Both the position numbers and the translations under genes were made by a program. This document shows positions 1,560 through 63,169 of a DNA stretch of 64,000 nucleotides, piece by piece. The stretch lies in the NCBI GenBank assembly GCA_965215185.1, contig OZ244034.1:1600001-1664000 (forward strand), written 5' to 3'. The notes beneath the pieces are model-generated. The model did not search any database. It had not been told where the DNA came from and worked only from the letters and a program-made list of their open reading frames with translations. Within the stretch, counting starts at the first letter, position 1; each line of letters opens with the position of its first letter. The stretch is from Acidimicrobiia bacterium (GTDB lineage Bacteria; Actinomycetota; Acidimicrobiia; Spongiisociales; ZC4RG35).

Positions 1560-1645
1560 CTGGCTATGTGCCACCACCCCTGACCTGGGGCTCCGCAGGG
1601 GCTCCACATAGGACTCCACATTCAAACCGGGAGGGCTCCACATTT
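1560..1645 (+). repeat. Array repeat, terminal part only
   Basis: CCTGACCTGGGGCTCCGCAGGGGCTCCACATAGGACTCCACATTCAAACCGGGAGGGCTCCACATTT. Confidence 0.9.
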
Positions 1646-1663
1646 GCTGGCCGAACATCTGAT

Positions 1664-1871
1664 CCATGGATGCTTCCCATTGGTAGTCCGCATCGCCATC
1701 GGCAGGCCAGACGAGCAAAAGGTCAACGTCGCTGTCTTTGTTGGCCTCCCGACGGGCCAGCGAACCGAACAGCAGCGCCTTGATCGCACCTTTGGCGTTG
1801 GATCTGACAACCTCGGCAACCTTAGAGAACAAGGAGTCGTAATCCACCACCACGGGGAGAGTCTGGCTCAT
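1664..1871 (-). pseudogene. 3'-truncated minimal nucleotidyltransferase (MNT) antitoxin
   Basis: LFGSLARREANKDSDVDLLLVW; paralog of 48610 and 57860; cut by the array repeat. Confidence 0.8.
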
Positions 1872-1914
1872 GTTCCTATCATACCTGACCGGGTGCGACG
1901 ACGGACAAGTTGCA

Positions 1915-2410
1915 GGATGGTGCCGCTCCTTCGGTCTCGCCGCTCACACCATCGGCGTGTTGGCCCTAGCCATCGCCCACAACCTCAAACAAACCCTCAC
2001 GGTCGAAAGAACCCAAACAGACAAGCCCGCCCCTCCGGCCAGGCCCAAAAGTCACCAGCCGACCCGCAGGAACATCCTCGCCGACAGCCTCTTCGCACGG
2101 ATACCGCCCGACTAGCACACTTGCCGCACCCCCGACAGTAGCCCCCACTGCTGTCGGCTTTGCCGCGCCCGGACAACCCAAACCGGTACCCCGAAGCCTC
2201 CCAGCCCACCCCAGAACCCCCCACAGCACCCCAACAGGCAGCAGAACACCCCGAGAACAGGCAAAAACAGGAAAAAGGACCTAACTGGTCCACTTATTTG
2301 AGATAACTGGACCAGAGGTCTGGGTGGCCTGTGGGCGACCACCTCTGACCTGGGACTCCGCAGGGGCTCCACATTAGTCTCCACATTCAAACCGGGAGGG
2401 CTCCACATTT
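1915..2410 (+). mobile_element. Array repeat: DDE transposase 3' fragment + right end
   Basis: GWCRSFGLAAHTIGVLALAIAHNL...PPD*, hairpin, CTCCACATTT end. Confidence 0.9.
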
Positions 2411-2501
2411 GGGTTCGGCGGTGCCCGATCAACCCATTTGGGGAAGCACCAAGGGTTGATCGGGACATCCACTCCCACCAGCATCCAATAGAATAGAGTC
2501 C

Positions 2502-2696
2502 ATGCCTGATAGCCATATTGACTATTGGAACCACATAGCACTTGATCCCGAGGTGAGATTCGGCAAACCCTGTATCGCCGGAACCAGGATCACGGTCAGC
2601 GACATCCTCGAGAAAATGTCCTTCGGCATGACCGAGGAAGACATTCTTTCCGAGTGGGACTATCCTGTCTGGCGTACGCGTCCAACGGCCACCTAG
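2502..2696 (+). CDS. DUF433 family antitoxin (C-terminus possibly frameshifted)
   Basis: IALDPEVRFGKPCIAGTRITVSDIL; TAGAAT 7 nt upstream. Confidence 0.8.
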   Translation: MPDSHIDYWNHIALDPEVRFGKPCIAGTRITVSDILEKMSFGMTEEDILSEWDYPVWRTRPTAT

Positions 2697-2726
2697 CCAG
2701 AGCGTAGCCGTTCCCAACCATCCTGC

Positions 2727-3053
2727 ATGAAGCTGCTCTTTGACGAGAACCTCTCTCCGCGGTTGCCTCGCCTCCTATCGGATCTCTACCCCGATTCTGC
2801 ACATGTCGTTGCCTTAGGCATTGACCGGACCGGGGATTCGGGGATTTGGAATTATGCAAAGGATTTCGATTTCATCATCACTACCAAGGACTCGGACTAC
2901 CTCGAGTTGAGCGAGAGTAGGGGGCACCCGCCGAAGCTCGTGCTGGTTGAATCCGGCAATCAGCCTACATGGGTTGTCGAGGCAGATCTCCGCAACAACT
3001 ATGACCGGATGCGGCGTTTCAGTGGTAACGATGAGCCGGTATTGAGAATCTGA
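2727..3053 (+). CDS. DUF5615 PIN-like toxin
   Basis: MKLLFDENLS...DSGIWNYAK...IITTKDSDY. Confidence 0.9.
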   Translation: MKLLFDENLSPRLPRLLSDLYPDSAHVVALGIDRTGDSGIWNYAKDFDFIITTKDSDYLELSESRGHPPKLVLVESGNQPTWVVEADLRNNYDRMRRFSGNDEPVLRI

Positions 3054-60501: not shown

Positions 60502-60828
60502 TTACGCGGGTAGAAATCCGCTTTCTAGCTCAATAAAGTCCCACGCCGCCTCATAGTCACGGCTCTTGAGGTGATCCATAATAGAAGCGGTATTCGGAAG
60601 TTGTTGCCATCCGGGTTGGTACAACACCTGACGGCTGGTTACCCCGAACATAGCTCGGAGGTCAGAGACGATGGCTTTGATGTTTTCAAGGTCATATCGA
60701 GAAAGTCCCCGGGGTCGGTCCTTGCTGCGGAGTTTCCCTTGGAACATGGCGACCACAAAATCCTCAAAATCGGACTCGTTGCCGAGCACCACCGACGAGA
60801 TCTCCGAGTCTGCTGACATAATTGGCAC
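60502..60828 (-). CDS. Putative RES antitoxin
   Basis: YQP...MDHLKSRDYEAA...GFLPA. Confidence 0.65.
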   Translation of the reverse strand: MPIMSADSEISSVVLGNESDFEDFVVAMFQGKLRSKDRPRGLSRYDLENIKAIVSDLRAMFGVTSRQVLYQPGWQQLPNTASIMDHLKSRDYEAAWDFIELESGFLPA

Positions 60829-60959
60829 CTATTGTAATAGCCTCTCCTGGCCCTTGACGTGTCGAATGCCATTCCGAGGGCGTCCTTGTTCGGCGACCAT
60901 CAGGCTAAGTGTTCCTGACAACCAGCCGCTGCCAGCGGAACAGCATCGAAACTCGCAAC

Positions 60960-61491
60960 TCGATGATCAAGGACAAAGGCGGCCTGAAAGCCGGATGGTG
61001 CCGCTCCTTCGGTCTCGCCGCACACACCATCGGCGTGCTGGCACTAGCCATCGCCCACAACGTCAAAGAAACCATCGAGATCGAAGAAACCCAAACCGAC
61101 AAACCTGTTCCTCCGGCCAGCCCCAAGCACTTCGACCCGACCCGCCGCAACATCCTCGCCGACAGCCTCACACCTAGGGCACCGCCCGACTAGGCACACT
61201 TGCCGCACCCGGCGCCGACAGTAACCCCTACTGTCGGCTTTAGCGCGCCCGGACAACCCAAACCGGCACCCCCAAACCTCTCAACGCACCCAAAACCCAC
61301 CACAGCACGCCGACAGGCACAAGAGATGCGCGAAAACAGGCAACAATTGGAGAAAAACGGCCTAACTGGCCCACTTATTTGGGATAAATGGACCAGAGGT
61401 CGTGGTGGCCTGTGGTCCATCACCCTTGACCTGGGACTCCGCAGGGGCTCCACATAGGACTCCACATTCAAACCGGGAAGGCTCCACATTT
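60960..61491 (+). mobile_element. Array repeat + right end
   Basis: MIKDKGG...PPD*...CTCCACATTT. Confidence 0.9.
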
Positions 61492-61584
61492 GCTGGGCCG
61501 AAGCTCTGATAGCGGCGACTACATGATGTGTTGACAGGCATTGTCCGCATACTTACCGGCCCACCGCCCCTAGGACGGTTCCGG

Positions 61585-61887
61585 CTAGAGATACCGGGCA
61601 TGAAACACGGAACACTCTTCGTGCGGCTGTCGGAGATCCTCACGGAAACCGATTTGCAGCAAACGTCTACCAGAAACCTCCGCAACGGCCATGGTGGGGC
61701 GAACGATCCTTATCCCCCCACCGTACACCTCATCCCATTTGGTTGGCCTTCCCTTATACCTATGCGCTTCAGAGGGCTGCAACGAAAGAAGGTACTTGAT
61801 GTCCGATTTCAACACGCGGTTCTTTAAAACGGAGGGACGATAGACGATTTCTGCCTCGTCTGAGGGCCAGTACATGTAGGGAGGCAC
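61585..61887 (-). CDS. Putative toxin, paralog of 36071
   Basis: MPPYMYWPSDEA...VFHAR. Confidence 0.65.
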   Translation of the reverse strand: MPPYMYWPSDEAEIVYRPSVLKNRVLKSDIKYLLSLQPSEAHRYKGRPTKWDEVYGGGIRIVRPTMAVAEVSGRRLLQIGFREDLRQPHEECSVFHARYL

Positions 61888-61905
61888 CAGATCCCCCTCC
61901 TGGTT

Positions 61906-62238
61906 TTAGTCCTCCAGCAGAGGAACGGTTCGTTCTAGTCCGTCGTAGTGCTCAAGGAAGTGCTCAGCGAAGGCGCGTGATAGAAATCGTTGTCGCTCTC
62001 TCCGTTCCTCGGGCATAGCGCACTCTCTCATGATGTCATCCAAGGTGACCGTTAGGACGTCGAACCATACATCTCTGTCCTCAGTGCAGTGTCCGATAAC
62101 GAACAGGGTATCCCCTGGGGTGAAAGCTCCGTTTTCTGTTATGTAATCGGAGTACTCTTCCATCCCCCTGTCGAGTTCTTCCTCAGATATGTCGTGGCTT
62201 ATATCCACGGTGGAGGCGTCTAACGCTGGGCTAGTCAT
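61906..62238 (-). CDS. Putative antitoxin, paralog of 36392
   Basis: DVLTVTLDDIMREC. Confidence 0.65.
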   Translation of the reverse strand: MTSPALDASTVDISHDISEEELDRGMEEYSDYITENGAFTPGDTLFVIGHCTEDRDVWFDVLTVTLDDIMRECAMPEERRERQRFLSRAFAEHFLEHYDGLERTVPLLED

Positions 62239-62337
62239 AGCGCACAGCATAACGCTCTCAACGGCCAACGGCATTCCACATTCAGGTACCGATCTGCTCG
62301 GCTTCAGCGACGGTAGGCGGCCGAACAGCCCCTAGCC

Positions 62338-63169
62338 CAACCGTGCCCTGTGGCGGTGGACACGAAACCGGAAACTCGACAACGGCGGCGGACAGTACTC
62401 GTGCCCCCAATGCGCCGGGAGGGTCACCACCAACGCCCCAACCCGCAACACCAGCGTCGTGCCAGCTGAAACCGCTCCGTTCCTGCCCATCGAAGACACA
62501 CAATGCTGTCATGGCAAGGTCAGCATCGGAGTAGACAAGCTCGATGCCTACCAAGACATCCCCTACGGCACTCCCGCGCACGACAAAAGCTACGGACGTC
62601 GCAACCCCAGCGAGAAAACCTTTTCGATGATCAAGGACAAAGGCGGCCTGACACCCGGATGGTGCCGCTCCTTCGGTCTCGCCGCACACACCATCGGCGC
62701 CCTAGCCCTAGCCATCGCTCACAACCTCAAAGAAACCATCGGGATCGAAAGAACCCAAACCGAAAAACCCGCCGCTCCGGCCAGGCCCAAAAGTCACCAG
62801 CCGACCCGCAGAAAAATCCTCGCCGACAGCCTCTCCGCACGGGCACCGCCCGACTAGGCATACGGCCGCTCCGCAGCACCGACAGTAACCCTTACTGTCG
62901 GCGTTAGCGCGCCCGGACAACCCAAACCGCCACCCTGCCACCCCGCCACCCCGAAGCCTCCCAGCCCACCCAGAACTCCCCACAGCACCCCGACAGGCAA
63001 CAGAAAACCTCCGAAAACAGGCAAAAACAAAAAAAGGACCTAACTGGCCCACTTATTTGCGATAAATGGACCAGAGGCCTTGGTGGGCTGTGGGCCACCA
63101 CCTCTGACCTGGGACTCCGCAGGGGCTCCACATAGGACTCCACATTTGAACCGGGGAGGCTCCACATTT
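62338..63169 (+). mobile_element. Array repeat + right end
   Basis: ALWRWTRNRKLD...PPD*...CTCCACATTT. Confidence 0.9.

Follow-up and report, generated by a model that had tools for sequence, protein, structure and literature searches.

Tn7 makes a 5-bp duplication, and its relatives that target tRNA genes are, together with islands piled up at tRNA or tmRNA genes, among the closest described systems for the locus presented here. In the sections of the literature drawn on here, a Tn7-like insertion is placed 29 ± 1 bp after tRNA-Leu (PMC9881144), newcomers among the tycheposons displace older ones outward from one RNA gene and leave degraded remnants (10.1101/2020.12.28.424599), the tmRNA gene ssrA is a known hot spot (PMC4383910, PMC3146451), and insertion sequences of the IS1202 group insert 5 bp from XerC/XerD sites (PMC10132070, 10.1101/2022.12.17.520857). 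We analyzed a stretch of 64,000 nucleotides, termed the window, from an Acidimicrobiia bacterium, the repeats of which appear to be the ends, set one against the other, of numerous decayed copies of a transposon not described before.

A co-oriented array ending at ssrA

The motif CTCCACATT occurs 33 times in the window, 31 times on the + strand and twice on the - strand, whereas 0.48 occurrences are expected and 0 of 100 shuffles reached 33. A blastn search of the whole 3.12-Mb genome with the longest copy (window 52384-53556) returned 49 HSPs, 39 of which lie between genome positions 1,591,858 and 1,672,055, all on the + strand; the remaining 10 are distant relatives elsewhere in the genome. 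The copies, for which the original prediction had called for a genome-wide check of clustering and orientation, thus form a single clustered, co-oriented array. Mapping by blastn with a full-length reference from the relative G011 recovered all 16 predicted right termini, each ending within a few bases of the predicted position, and all five internal pieces (24875-25090, 26927-27295, 29433-29602, 36824-37134 and 50598-50879). Every one of these lies on the + strand, as predicted and far above chance, and against this reference the copies range from 76 bp to about 1.26 kb (1258 bp). The 21 HSPs obtained by tblastn in the window are likewise all on the + strand. None extends N-terminally past residue 241 of 587, in agreement with the predicted lack of an N-terminus in every copy, and the predicted YGRRNPxEK signature is present.

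On either side the array continues past the window, its limits being about genome 1,590,619 and 1,672,287; the window forms the central part of this island of about 82 kb. The array terminates at ssrA (genome 1,672,427-1,672,780, - strand; L003:8427-8780(-)), the 3' end of which faces the array. A transposase tail is joined directly to the ssrA 3' end in G000, G011, G003 and G006, and the subfamily adjoining ssrA differs between species. The distance from ssrA to the conserved left flank is only about 6 kb in G004 versus about 83 kb here.

Anatomy of the repeat and of the complete element

The repeat is a composite of a right end, followed by 5 nt and an arm of ~100 nt. The right end comprises the 3' part of the transposase gene and a tail of ~300 nt closing in a 12-nt inverted repeat, while the arm contains a hairpin with the matching inverted repeat, the decamer CTGACCTGGG and three copies of CTCCACAT. 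Arms were located by nhmmer, remnants and tails by blastn/tblastn; a partial arm (43630-43680) and one inverted arm (45038-45126) add to the predicted set. The features of the window, including representative cargo, are as follows.

1561-1652 (+): arm (proposed left end) alone, no transposase piece on its left; nhmmer E 5e-23
1912-2317 (+): transposase 3' remnant, aa 520-587, and tail (right end); blastn, tblastn
2318-2416 (+): arm; nhmmer E 8e-24
2502-3053 (+): cargo pair DUF433 (2502-2696) and DUF5615 (2727-3053); Pfam E 2e-15 and 3e-25
3102-3802 (+): transposase remnant, aa about 268-290, then 371-587
3803-5529: IS1182-like insertion splitting this remnant from its tail; its ORF 3931-5469(-) matches DDE_Tnp_1_6, DDE_Tnp_1 and DUF772 (Pfam)
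5530-5740 (+): tail (right end) of copy 3102-3802; blastn, reference positions 1761-2064
5741-5836 (+): arm; nhmmer E 1e-21
24875-25087 (+): internal transposase piece, aa 268-338, right side cut by an arm tip
25088-26474 (+): block opening with a sister-subfamily arm hairpin; AbiEii gene at 25811-26473; 99.8% identity to G011 over 25098-26474
26927-27295 (+): internal transposase piece, aa 424-546
28700-28801 (+): arm, no tail on its left; nhmmer E 1e-25
29433-29602 (+): internal transposase piece, aa 489-542
29733-30537 (+): cargo nucleotidyltransferase (29733-30188) and HepT-like gene (30175-30537; score 23.2 versus cut-off 23.5); Pfam
31084-32016 (+): transposase remnant, aa 284-436 and 503-587, and tail
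32017-32118 (+): arm; nhmmer E 2e-23
33081-33652 (+): transposase remnant, aa 469-586, and tail
33653-33750 (+): arm; nhmmer E 5e-18
35885-35982 (+): arm with only about 10 nt of right end on its left; a duplicated unit begins
36824-37134 (+): internal transposase piece, aa 418-520
38808-39248 (+): transposase piece, aa 406-466, and tail
39249-39340 (+): arm with two CTCCACAT copies; nhmmer E 4e-20
41186-41648 (+): transposase remnant, aa 502-584, and tail
41649-41747 (+): arm; nhmmer E 1e-20
43630-43680 (+): partial arm; nhmmer E 3e-7
45038-45126 (-): sole inverted arm of the island; nhmmer E 6e-13
46724-47049 (+): transposase remnant, aa 528-585, and tail
47050-47157 (+): arm; nhmmer E 8e-16
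50598-50879 (+): internal transposase piece, aa 474-567
52302-53462 (+): longest remnant, aa 241-584, and tail; lacks the first catalytic Asp (D189)
53463-53565 (+): arm; nhmmer E 8e-23
54544-54687 (+): diverged tail end and partial arm
55626-55878 (+): transposase remnant, aa 541-587, and tail
55879-55980 (+): arm; nhmmer E 4e-23
59248-59780 (+): transposase remnant, aa 474-587, and tail
59781-59874 (+): arm; nhmmer E 6e-25
59935-60828 (-): cargo RES-domain gene (59935-60495; Pfam RES E 2e-7) and upstream partner (60502-60828) of no known family
60956-61398 (+): transposase remnant, aa 501-587, and tail
61399-61496 (+): arm, opens the unit duplicating 35878-37134
62338-63075 (+): transposase remnant, aa 418-587, and tail
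63076-63175 (+): arm; nhmmer E 8e-27

We interpret the arm as the left end of the element that follows. The original prediction had taken ...CTCCACATT for the right terminus of the transposase-bearing piece and had reported no left end. This terminus most likely belongs to the left end of the next unit instead, since arms occur without a transposase piece on their left at 1561-1652, 28700-28801 and 35885-35982. Moreover, at genome 1,982,700 an arm precedes orfA, the first gene of the element, by 245 bp, in G007:C20 an arm is fused to orfA at residue 119, and the duplicated unit 35878-37134, which matches 61392-62648 at 92% identity, begins exactly at an arm. With CTCCACATT assigned to the arm that opens the next unit, the element does have a left end. 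The 3-6 kb upstream of the complete copies in G002, G013 and G016 yielded none, nor was one found for the G007:C69 copy (L030), and nhmmer detected no arm at the G007:C82 copy (L031), the inverted-repeat search having covered the other copies. The arm is thus assigned as a left end on the basis of two loci and one duplication boundary.

In 24 of 67 arms, at least 8 of 12 bases are complementary to the upstream DNA, and in 23 of these 24 the spacer is exactly 5 nt (shuffles: mean 1.0, maximum 4). The inverted repeats co-vary between subfamilies, e.g., GCGAAGACCCC / GGGGTCTTCGC in the tRNA-Met array. This constant spacer between the inverted repeats is a candidate for a target duplication, of which the original prediction had found none; the 5-mers flanking a unit are, however, often unequal on the two sides, so that the spacer counts as no more than a candidate.

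Complete elements are present in relatives, where they stand tail-to-tail against tRNA genes, and absent from this array. From the left, they consist of an arm of ~100 nt (a hairpin with the 12-nt inverted repeat, the decamer CTGACCTGGG and two or three repeats in subterminal position, which in the subfamily of this array are CTCCACAT), optional cargo, orfA, a transposase gene and a tail of about 300 nt closing in the matching 12-nt inverted repeat; larger copies add a divergently oriented HTH gene between cargo and orfA. The transposase of ~590 aa displays a DDE/YREK signature, with D189, D339, E509 and Y502-R505-E509 invariant across 15 homologues, and has no specific family model. Its best library matches, NCBIfam IS1182 and DDE_Tnp_1_6, stay far under the cut-offs (24 bits versus 270 and 20.5 versus 25.1, respectively). 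The structural model of OrfA (pLDDT 88.8) retrieved Cre, XerH and XerA as best folds (E about 1e-6), and no conserved Tyr was found after residue 235 of 307; OrfA is thus predicted to have a tyrosine-recombinase fold without the nucleophile tyrosine. The orfA-transposase pair is also encoded on plasmid pSCL3 of Streptomyces clavuligerus.

Every unit of the array lacks orfA and at least the first 240 transposase codons. The full-length master element sought by the original prediction does exist, but outside this genome. As no full-length copy of the CTCCACAT subfamily was found in this genome, the array may be a fossil.

RNA genes as probable insertion sites and a proposed origin of the array

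Within the genome, 51 of 57 arms are directed towards a tRNA or tmRNA gene that lies in convergent orientation no more than 90 kb away (random expectation 0.30), a count in which the arms of one array are not independent of each other. Right ends adjoin 5 of the 50 RNA genes of this genome, and the same arrangement is repeated at five or six RNA genes. In other genomes of the genus, 13 of 21 fetched transposase loci adjoin a convergent tRNA gene; five of the other eight continue into an arm, one has a tRNA about 1 kb away and two have nothing. Seven of the eight copies carrying orfA and a full-length transposase gene lie directly at a tRNA. The anchoring of this array at ssrA, and of the sister arrays at tRNA genes, points to site-specific insertion next to RNA genes and not to a self-contained capture site.

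The explanation we favor, at a probability of roughly 0.6, is that one DDE transposon family inserted again and again, in one orientation, at the ACCA (3') end of ssrA, thereby building the island of about 82 kb, and that its copies then decayed into non-autonomous units with cargo. The right end would be the one directed at the RNA gene, with the insertion point one base beyond the encoded ACCA, and insertion would probably duplicate 5 bp, the 5 nt of the junction being the putative target duplication. Because each new insertion would fall between the RNA gene and the previous element, a right end would come to lie 5 nt from the next left end, a junction corresponding to the "repeat" of the original prediction. 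The units here are non-autonomous, composed of left end, cargo (often toxin-antitoxin), truncated transposase and right end, and some have probably been duplicated or reshuffled by recombination at a later time. The DDE protein presumably catalyzes insertion, OrfA may pick the target, and the units could be mobile in trans. Serial insertion leaves unaccounted why losses are always left-sided, removing orfA and the transposase 5' end, and how unrelated cargo was placed between arm and gene remnant. The junctions, 15 of them distinct, look illegitimate, and two blocks common with G011 (97-99.8% identity) are bordered by an element end on one side only, the position on the other side being featureless.

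Toxin-antitoxin or defence cargo had been predicted for most spacers. This holds only in part: in 8 of 14 inter-arm stretches, an ORF reaches or nearly reaches the Pfam cut-off for a toxin-antitoxin or abortive-infection domain, and one further stretch has only a weak hit. Cargo genes occupy both strands, 28 of the 50 scanned ORFs matched no family, and Phage_integrase, the Pfam family of integron integrases, was matched by 0 of these 50 ORFs of the window. The original prediction had regarded the terminal repeat as a reusable capture or recombination site akin to integron attC/attI, with cassettes arriving by one-ended transposition in trans. Co-oriented repeats alternating with small cargo modules, the lack of an autonomous unit in the array and the featureless border of the two G011 blocks, a pattern that one-ended events would give, would agree with such a site. 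We nevertheless deem it very unlikely, as neither an integron integrase nor an attC-like site was seen and the repeat is a decayed gene of 76-1258 bp plus ends, not a short folded site. In addition, the arrays are anchored at ssrA and tRNA genes, complete, two-ended-looking elements stand singly at tRNA genes, and the constant distance of 5 nt between the inverted repeats accords with two-ended DDE insertion.

The second option of the original prediction, homologous recombination between the repeats, probably did reshuffle the array, as indicated by duplicated units and the comparison of G000 with G011. These two arrays are broadly collinear and differ locally in copy number. Besides the 92% duplication, the two-unit block 41204-42518 matches 60956-62271 at 85%, and contigs of three other studies join tails of different units, a weak indication given that the matching sides measure only 21-44 nt. 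That a few old insertions followed by unequal crossing-over, segmental duplication and homologous exchange built most of the array is, however, unlikely: at least 15 transposase breakpoints with different cargo cannot arise by duplicating few units, different subfamilies adjoin ssrA in different species, and the arrangement recurs at several RNA genes. Recombination supplements serial insertion more than it replaces it.

Alternatively, tyrosine-integrase islands could have piled up at ssrA, a classic integrase target (PMC4383910), with the arms as attP-type arms bearing arm-type sites and the transposase pieces as passengers. The three direct repeats of the arm do resemble arm-type sites, integrase-fragment-like ORFs were recognized by eye from translations in the left part of the island, and in G007:C53, beside a complete element, an ssrA fragment of 15 nt is followed by a gene for a P4-type integrase. 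A second copy of the first 15 nt of the ssrA 3' end (at most 2 mismatches) is missing between genome 1,590,000 and 1,672,426, and the displaced gene fragments typical of integrase islands are therefore absent. Together with the missing catalytic tyrosine of OrfA, the lack of Phage_integrase matches among the scanned ORFs and the 12-nt inverted repeats at 5-nt spacing, which fit a transposon, this makes stacked integrase islands highly improbable.

Comparison with known systems

Like chromosomal integrons, the locus is an extended co-oriented array in which small modules, with many toxin-antitoxin pairs among them, are set apart by a recurring separator element. In contrast to integrons, no scanned ORF of the window has a Phage_integrase domain, cargo lies on both strands, and the separator consists of two transposon ends and a gene remnant instead of attC. 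With the IS4 clan and the IS1182 family, the transposase has in common a DDE triad and a Y-(2)-R-(3)-E signature; the element differs from them by a CxxC...CC insertion in the transposase, a second gene, long asymmetric ends and site specificity.

In the IS1202 group, too, a DDE element inserts in one orientation and keeps a fixed short distance to a site associated with tyrosine recombinases. Its members use host Xer sites and are not known to encode a recombinase-like protein, whereas the element described here has a recombinase-fold protein of its own and is found at the ends of RNA genes. With the tandem tRNA/tmRNA islands made by tyrosine or serine integrases (Islander-type, tycheposons, Dehalococcoides ssrA islands) it shares the outward push of older by newer arrivals and the degraded remnants left behind. 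Integrase islands, however, are bounded by partial RNA-gene copies and carry an active integrase, while here no ssrA fragment is repeated, the recombinase-fold protein lacks the tyrosine and the ends are inverted repeats of a DDE element.

From tRNA-targeting Tn7-like transposons (TnsD/TniQ; cyanobacterial McCAST, PmcCAST) the element departs in its transposase, which is not of the TnsB/rve kind and has a weak DDE_Tnp_1_6 hit as sole Pfam match, in its module, where HTH gene, orfA and transposase gene but no TnsA, TnsC or TniQ gene were seen, in the tyrosine-recombinase fold of the partner protein, and in inserting about 1 nt after CCA versus about 29 bp. In common with them, it inserts orientation-specifically just downstream of a tRNA gene that stays undamaged, has two asymmetric ends with several subterminal repeats, is proposed to use a dedicated non-catalytic protein as target selector, and carries cargo rich in defence and toxin-antitoxin genes; as for Tn7, the unit at the junction measures 5 nt.

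Organization of the array and of its repeat unit

The genome (G000) is a single contig of 3,121,534 bases, with the window at 1,600,001-1,664,000. When the longest transposase copy (window 52384-53556) was searched against it by blastn, 39 of 49 HSPs fell within one stretch, 1,591,858-1,672,055, and all 39 lay on the plus strand. The remaining ten, at 66-92% identity, were dispersed over seven other places. Within the window, all 21 tblastn HSPs are on the plus strand and the earliest starts at residue 241 of 587. With a full-length reference taken from a relative, all 16 termini and five internal pieces of the original prediction were placed to within a few bases, and its picture of clustered, co-oriented copies lacking an N-terminus is borne out. 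The 9-mer CTCCACATT occurs 33 times in the window, 31 times on the plus strand, versus 0.48 expected under dinucleotide-preserving shuffles (0 of 100 shuffles reached 33).

The recurring unit consists of a transposase remnant, a tail and an arm, and measures 76-1258 bp. The transposase reading frame stops ~300 nt ahead of what had been called the terminus; these 300 nt, the tail, are conserved and terminate in ...AAATGGACCAGAGGTC. In the copies nearest the tmRNA gene (ssrA) of G000 and of three relatives (G011, G003 and G006), the tail is directly joined to the tmRNA 3' end. In array copies it is followed by 5 nt and then by the ~100-nt arm, with a 7-bp hairpin (GGTGGCC TGTG GGCCACC), the decamer CTGACCTGGG and CTCCACAT repeated two or three times.

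Arms also occur apart from a tail: those at window 1561-1652 and 28700-28801 and at genome 1,982,700-1,982,794 have none, and the one at window 35885-35982 has only ~10 nt of it. The arm at genome 1,982,700 lies 245 bp upstream of a homologue of orfA, the first gene of the element, and on contig C20 of the relative G007 an arm runs into orfA at its residue 119, upstream of a full transposase and a tRNA-Val gene. Moreover, a duplicated unit (window 35878-37134 and 61392-62648, 92% identity over 1257 bp) starts exactly at the arm, and the DNA to the left of the arm differs. Since the arm is separable from the tail, lies upstream of orfA and bounds this duplication, it reads as the left end of the unit on its right. 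The "repeat" as first described is accordingly a junction between one right end and the next left end.

Inverted copies of CTCCACAT were considered as a left end and rejected, as there are just two in the window (37716 and 40793) and neither is an element end. The stretch around the first (37706-37738) corresponds to the inverted last ~31 nt of an arm plus its right flank, matches 41717-41749 and 61468-61498 in reverse complement at 88-90% identity, and suggests a local inversion. Upstream of seven complete copies in relatives, the search for inverted repeats returned chance 10-11-mers only.

No piece of orfA was found in the ssrA island of G000, and the only transposase genes of this genome that reach the N-terminus are three members of a 30%-identical subfamily beside tRNA-Met. 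The array in the window is thus without an autonomous member. Logan contigs from four runs of four studies end at the repeats; joints between the tails of different units have sides of just 21-44 nt, too short to reveal strain differences or excision.

Position of element ends at ssrA and tRNA genes

The tmRNA gene is complete (genome 1,672,427-1,672,780, minus strand; ARAGORN and Rfam, 157.5 bits in Rfam), encodes the tag peptide AKPQMALAA and has its 3' end toward the array. The ORFs to its right resemble, by eye from their translations, smpB, an M23 peptidase, ftsX, ftsE, prfB and secA. Left of the island, DNA of the relative G004 is 95% identical to G000 positions -14529 to -11081; the distance from this DNA to ssrA is ~6 kb in G004 versus ~83 kb in G000. 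In G011, a 78-kb array of the same build ends at ssrA, and a further array is present in G007 (contig C33). A candidate displaced ssrA fragment at genome 1,570,330 was dismissed as a chance match. Within the left part of the island, genome 1,596,392-1,596,467 on the plus strand (positions 11392-11467 of the fetched locus L002) is called a tRNA by Rfam (37.5 bits), not by ARAGORN; it could be an atypical or decayed tRNA gene.

Searching the genome with an nhmmer profile built from the arms gave 57 matches. The ssrA island holds 25, of which 24 are on the plus strand, and those outside form smaller co-oriented groups that point at the following genes.

Genes faced by co-oriented arm groups (nhmmer arm profile)
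tRNA-Lys(ttt)
tRNA-Leu(cag)
tRNA-Met(cat)
tRNA-Ser(tga)
tRNA-Val(tac)

Overall, a convergent RNA gene lies within 90 kb ahead of 51 of the 57 arms, versus 0.30 expected at random places, with six or so arrays rather than single arms as the independent units of this count. Of the 50 RNA genes found in the genome, 5 have the right end of an element against their 3' end. Elsewhere in the genus, we considered 21 of the stronger transposase matches lying outside ssrA arrays, leaving out nine weaker places.

Surroundings of transposase loci in relatives
13 of 21 loci: adjoining a convergent tRNA gene
5 of 21 loci: arm next
1 of 21 loci: tRNA gene 1,049 bp off
2 of 21 loci: nothing seen

Eight loci carry orfA together with a full-length transposase, and in seven of these the copy sits directly at a tRNA gene, as serial insertion at the RNA gene predicts.

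The two ends carry inverted repeats. Of the first 12 nt of the arm (GGCCTGTGGGCC), 9 can pair with the tail's last 12 nt (GGACCAGAGGTC), or 10-11 in G007 and G011, and 5 nt always separate the two stretches. The tRNA-Met subfamily has a perfect pair (GCGAAGACCCC, 5 nt, GGGGTCTTCGC), and both sides co-vary in other subfamilies, e.g., CGCTAATGGCCC / GGGCTGTTAGCT. We examined the 32 nt upstream of 67 arms from G000 and relatives (nhmmer E <= 1e-10): in 24, at least 8 of 12 bases find their complement there, and 23 of these have a spacer of exactly 5. In 500 shuffles of the upstream letters, such junctions averaged 1.0 and never exceeded 4, a comparison that does not translate into a probability, the 67 arms being mutually related. 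On the RNA gene's own strand the spacer reads ACC(A/C)N, i.e., the discriminator base, CCA and one further base, which would fit a 5-bp target duplication made repeatedly at the same pentamer. The 5-mers flanking single units are in some cases equal (TGGGT/TGGGT around 2318-5740), and most differ at one or two positions, so that the target duplication is only inferred.

The decamer CTCTGACCTGGG, the most conserved portion of every arm, was found genome-wide 6-65 nt downstream of at least ten tRNA genes without an element (for example at genome 1,302,973; 1,782,333; 1,541,359, minus strand; and 2,993,184, minus strand). Three relatives have it downstream of ssrA as well (flanks in G002, G004 and contig C56 of G007). 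These occurrences may be traces left by lost elements, or the arm may have copied a natural tRNA trailer.

Serial insertion leaves part of the array aside. Cargo meets truncated transposase at 17 junctions, which occupy 15 different positions and show no common motif. Relatives, too, always lose the left side, with orfA starting from residue 215 or 119 and transposase from residue 187; a surviving orfA start, expected sometimes after simple internal deletion, was seen in none. This left-sided loss and the cargo junctions are outside what the serial-insertion model explains. Two further processes had been proposed for the array, one-ended transposition and recombination between repeats. Core DNA of G000 and G011 is 79-91% identical; window 25098-26474 (1377 bp) is 99.8% identical to G011:C10:2294985-2296361. 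Its borders are sharp, its flanks differ between the two genomes, and it runs from the tip of an arm, in the hairpin, to the stop codon of the AbiEii gene that it carries. A second block (67758-68801 in window numbering) is 97% identical to G011, starts at a featureless point and ends at a tail-arm junction. Such blocks suggest a recent exchange of pieces carrying only one element end, and they keep a minor place for both one-ended transposition and recombination. The latter has in addition reshaped the array, as the block duplications inside it indicate.

Cargo, transposase and OrfA

A scan of 50 window ORFs against Pfam gave the following features; 28 of the 50 had no Pfam match.

Pfam features of the window (window positions)
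841, 2502, 35431: DUF433
2727, 32279: DUF5615
1455 (minus strand), 29733, 40021 (minus strand): nucleotidyltransferase (MNT type)
30175: HepT-like, slightly below cut-off
25811: AbiEii
59935, minus strand: RES
29162, minus strand: BrnT-like, weak
56026, minus strand: Abi_alpha, weak
3931-5469, minus strand: IS1182-like transposase interrupting one copy
47199-48227, minus strand: IS110 transposase
8326-10737: hybrid histidine kinase plus response regulator
15338-17866, minus strand: protein with seven FN3 repeats
Within the window: SLH-domain ORF

Most spacers had been said to carry a toxin-antitoxin or defence module; we found at least one in 8 of 14 inter-arm stretches, so that roughly half of that claim is retained. 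A two-gene module without a Pfam family (100 aa and ~120 aa) is present in three copies in the array (36071-36760, 41832-42515 and 61585-62274, all minus strand) and one in G011 (~90% identity), and may be an unnamed toxin-antitoxin pair. The FN3 ORF lies within a 19-kb arm-free stretch and contains a tandem DNA repeat of 282-285 bp (16233-17381), two copies of which are 100% identical.

Full-length homologues of the transposase have ~590 aa. Across 15 aligned homologues, D189, D339, E509, Y502 and R505 are invariant, corresponding to the DDE triad and the YREK signature, as are C439, C442, C473 and C474. Truncated copies of 344 aa and 449 aa scored 24.1 and 19.6 bits against NCBIfam IS1182 (cut-off 270), and the Pfam DDE_Tnp_1_6 scores of the transposase were 20.5 and 17.3 (cut-off 25.1; E 6e-4). 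The island seems to have been built by a family of DDE transposons without a name in any curated Pfam or NCBIfam model, all scores being sub-threshold. The family is not small, as a profile search of 1.84 billion representatives returned 1157 clusters at 50% identity with E <= 0.001, 253 of them with E <= 1e-30; many fragments are among the 150 matches listed. A phylum-wide search of 401 genomes (E <= 1e-20) found matches in at least two, G000 and G186, an undercount since at most three candidates per genome were scored.

In relatives the transposase gene is preceded by orfA, which on contig C53 of G007 overlaps its start codon (ATGA). None of the 47 OrfA homologues (~308 aa) has a Pfam domain. 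An AF2 model built from 22 sequences reached a mean pLDDT of 88.8, and Foldseek matched it in the PDB to Cre, XerH, XerA and Tn1549 Int (E 9e-7 to 2e-4, probability 1.0, TM scores 0.37-0.46), giving a predicted two-domain Cre/Xer fold. An OrfA profile searched against PDB sequences hit XerC/XerD only, at E 0.4-1.8. In an alignment of 22 homologues, Tyr does not reach 40% of the rows in any column beyond residue 235 of 307, and the place of the first catalytic arginine is presumably the variable residue in GGGLxGxEL, judged by eye against the Xer motif. Given the missing conserved Tyr and the variable arginine place, OrfA looks like a recombinase that would bind DNA without being able to cut it. 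Complex prediction of OrfA with the transposase gave a median score of 0.46, and one control gave 0.29, values that speak neither for nor against binding.

The module extends beyond the genus. A divergent HTH gene followed by the orfA-transposase pair is present on pSCL3 of Streptomyces clavuligerus (NZ_CP086232.1, 254,930-258,095; locus L019), with an hhalign probability of 99% for OrfA and a tblastn E of 4e-19 for the transposase. The three genes are annotated as hypothetical or regulator there, the RefSeq copy of the transposase being a "hypothetical protein". pSCL3 is a linear Streptomyces plasmid and has no tRNA gene within 4 kb of the module; weaker matches to the module lie on two Rhodococcus plasmids.

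Two observations concern individual complete elements. In locus L020 (G002:C1, ~2,319,600-2,322,000, minus strand), a long ORF with what we take, by eye from the translation, to be SNF2-type helicase motifs lies upstream of the complete element at tRNA-Leu(cag), and a 197-aa remnant occupies the equivalent place in G007:C53; it may be a large defence cargo of autonomous elements. In G011, orfA of the only complete copy of the CTCCACAT subfamily is interrupted by two genes of 452 aa and 310 aa that, by eye from translations, are presumably an IS21-type pair (L004:1800-3940).

Interpretation and comparison with known systems

Islands beside tRNA and tmRNA genes are usually ascribed to integrases. 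Our preferred reading, to which we assign a probability of about 60%, is that the array is an accretion island of a new DDE transposon family specific for tRNA/tmRNA ends and accompanied by a recombinase-derived partner. In a more tentative version, OrfA would act as a DNA-binding guide that delivers the transposase to tRNA and tmRNA genes, at their ACCA end. Later copies might be helped to dock there by the left end of an earlier element, although arm tip and ssrA end show little likeness, and elements would stack head-to-tail into large toxin-antitoxin/defence islands. A role of OrfA as target selector is put forward only tentatively. Similarly, we consider it possible, with more doubt than confidence, that these are undescribed site-specific transposons in which a nucleophile-less tyrosine recombinase guides an IS4-clan DDE transposase to the ACCA end. 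If true, this would be a second, independent invention of Tn7-style targeting, derived from an integrase. With OrfA as selector, the system would be compact, two proteins directing precise insertion in one orientation at a site both universal and harmless, and would be relevant to mobile-element evolution and insertion tools. Accretion offers a concrete route by which toxin-antitoxin and abortive-infection genes accumulate at one locus, and explains the dozens of transposase pseudogene fragments reported there by annotation pipelines. The finding is real and exceeds an ordinary IS graveyard in interest.

The array is not the integron-like device originally proposed. Integrons carry an IntI-type tyrosine recombinase gene beside attI at one array end, whereas this array ends at ssrA and none of the 50 scanned window ORFs matches Phage_integrase. 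In place of attC sites, short imperfect palindromes after cassettes, there is the long repeat unit with only the 7-bp hairpin of its arm. Islands of tyrosine integrases are bounded by repeats of the 3' part of the RNA gene and employ an active tyrosine recombinase. Here, no ssrA fragment is repeated (the first 15, 20, 25 or 30 nt of the ssrA 3' end have no second match inside the island), and OrfA lacks a conserved catalytic Tyr. The literature searched did not yield an account of any DDE transposon at tRNA/tmRNA ends that has a partner of recombinase fold.

With the IS4 clan and IS1182 the transposase shares the DDE triad and YREK signature, but its family score is far below cut-off. Tn7-like elements employ TnsB (rve-type), TnsC and TniQ/TnsD, whereas the transposase has no rve match in Pfam and HTH, orfA and transposase make up the conserved module. 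Tn7-like elements insert in one orientation next to a conserved gene, with a 5-bp duplication and multi-site ends. Orientation and position agree with this here; the 5-nt spacer, at 23 of the 24 junctions with good inverted repeats, might correspond to the duplication, although flanking 5-mers are mostly not identical. The nearest systems in outcome are the stacked islands that integrases make at tRNA/tmRNA genes; the nearest in function are tRNA-targeting Tn7-like elements (PMC9881144).
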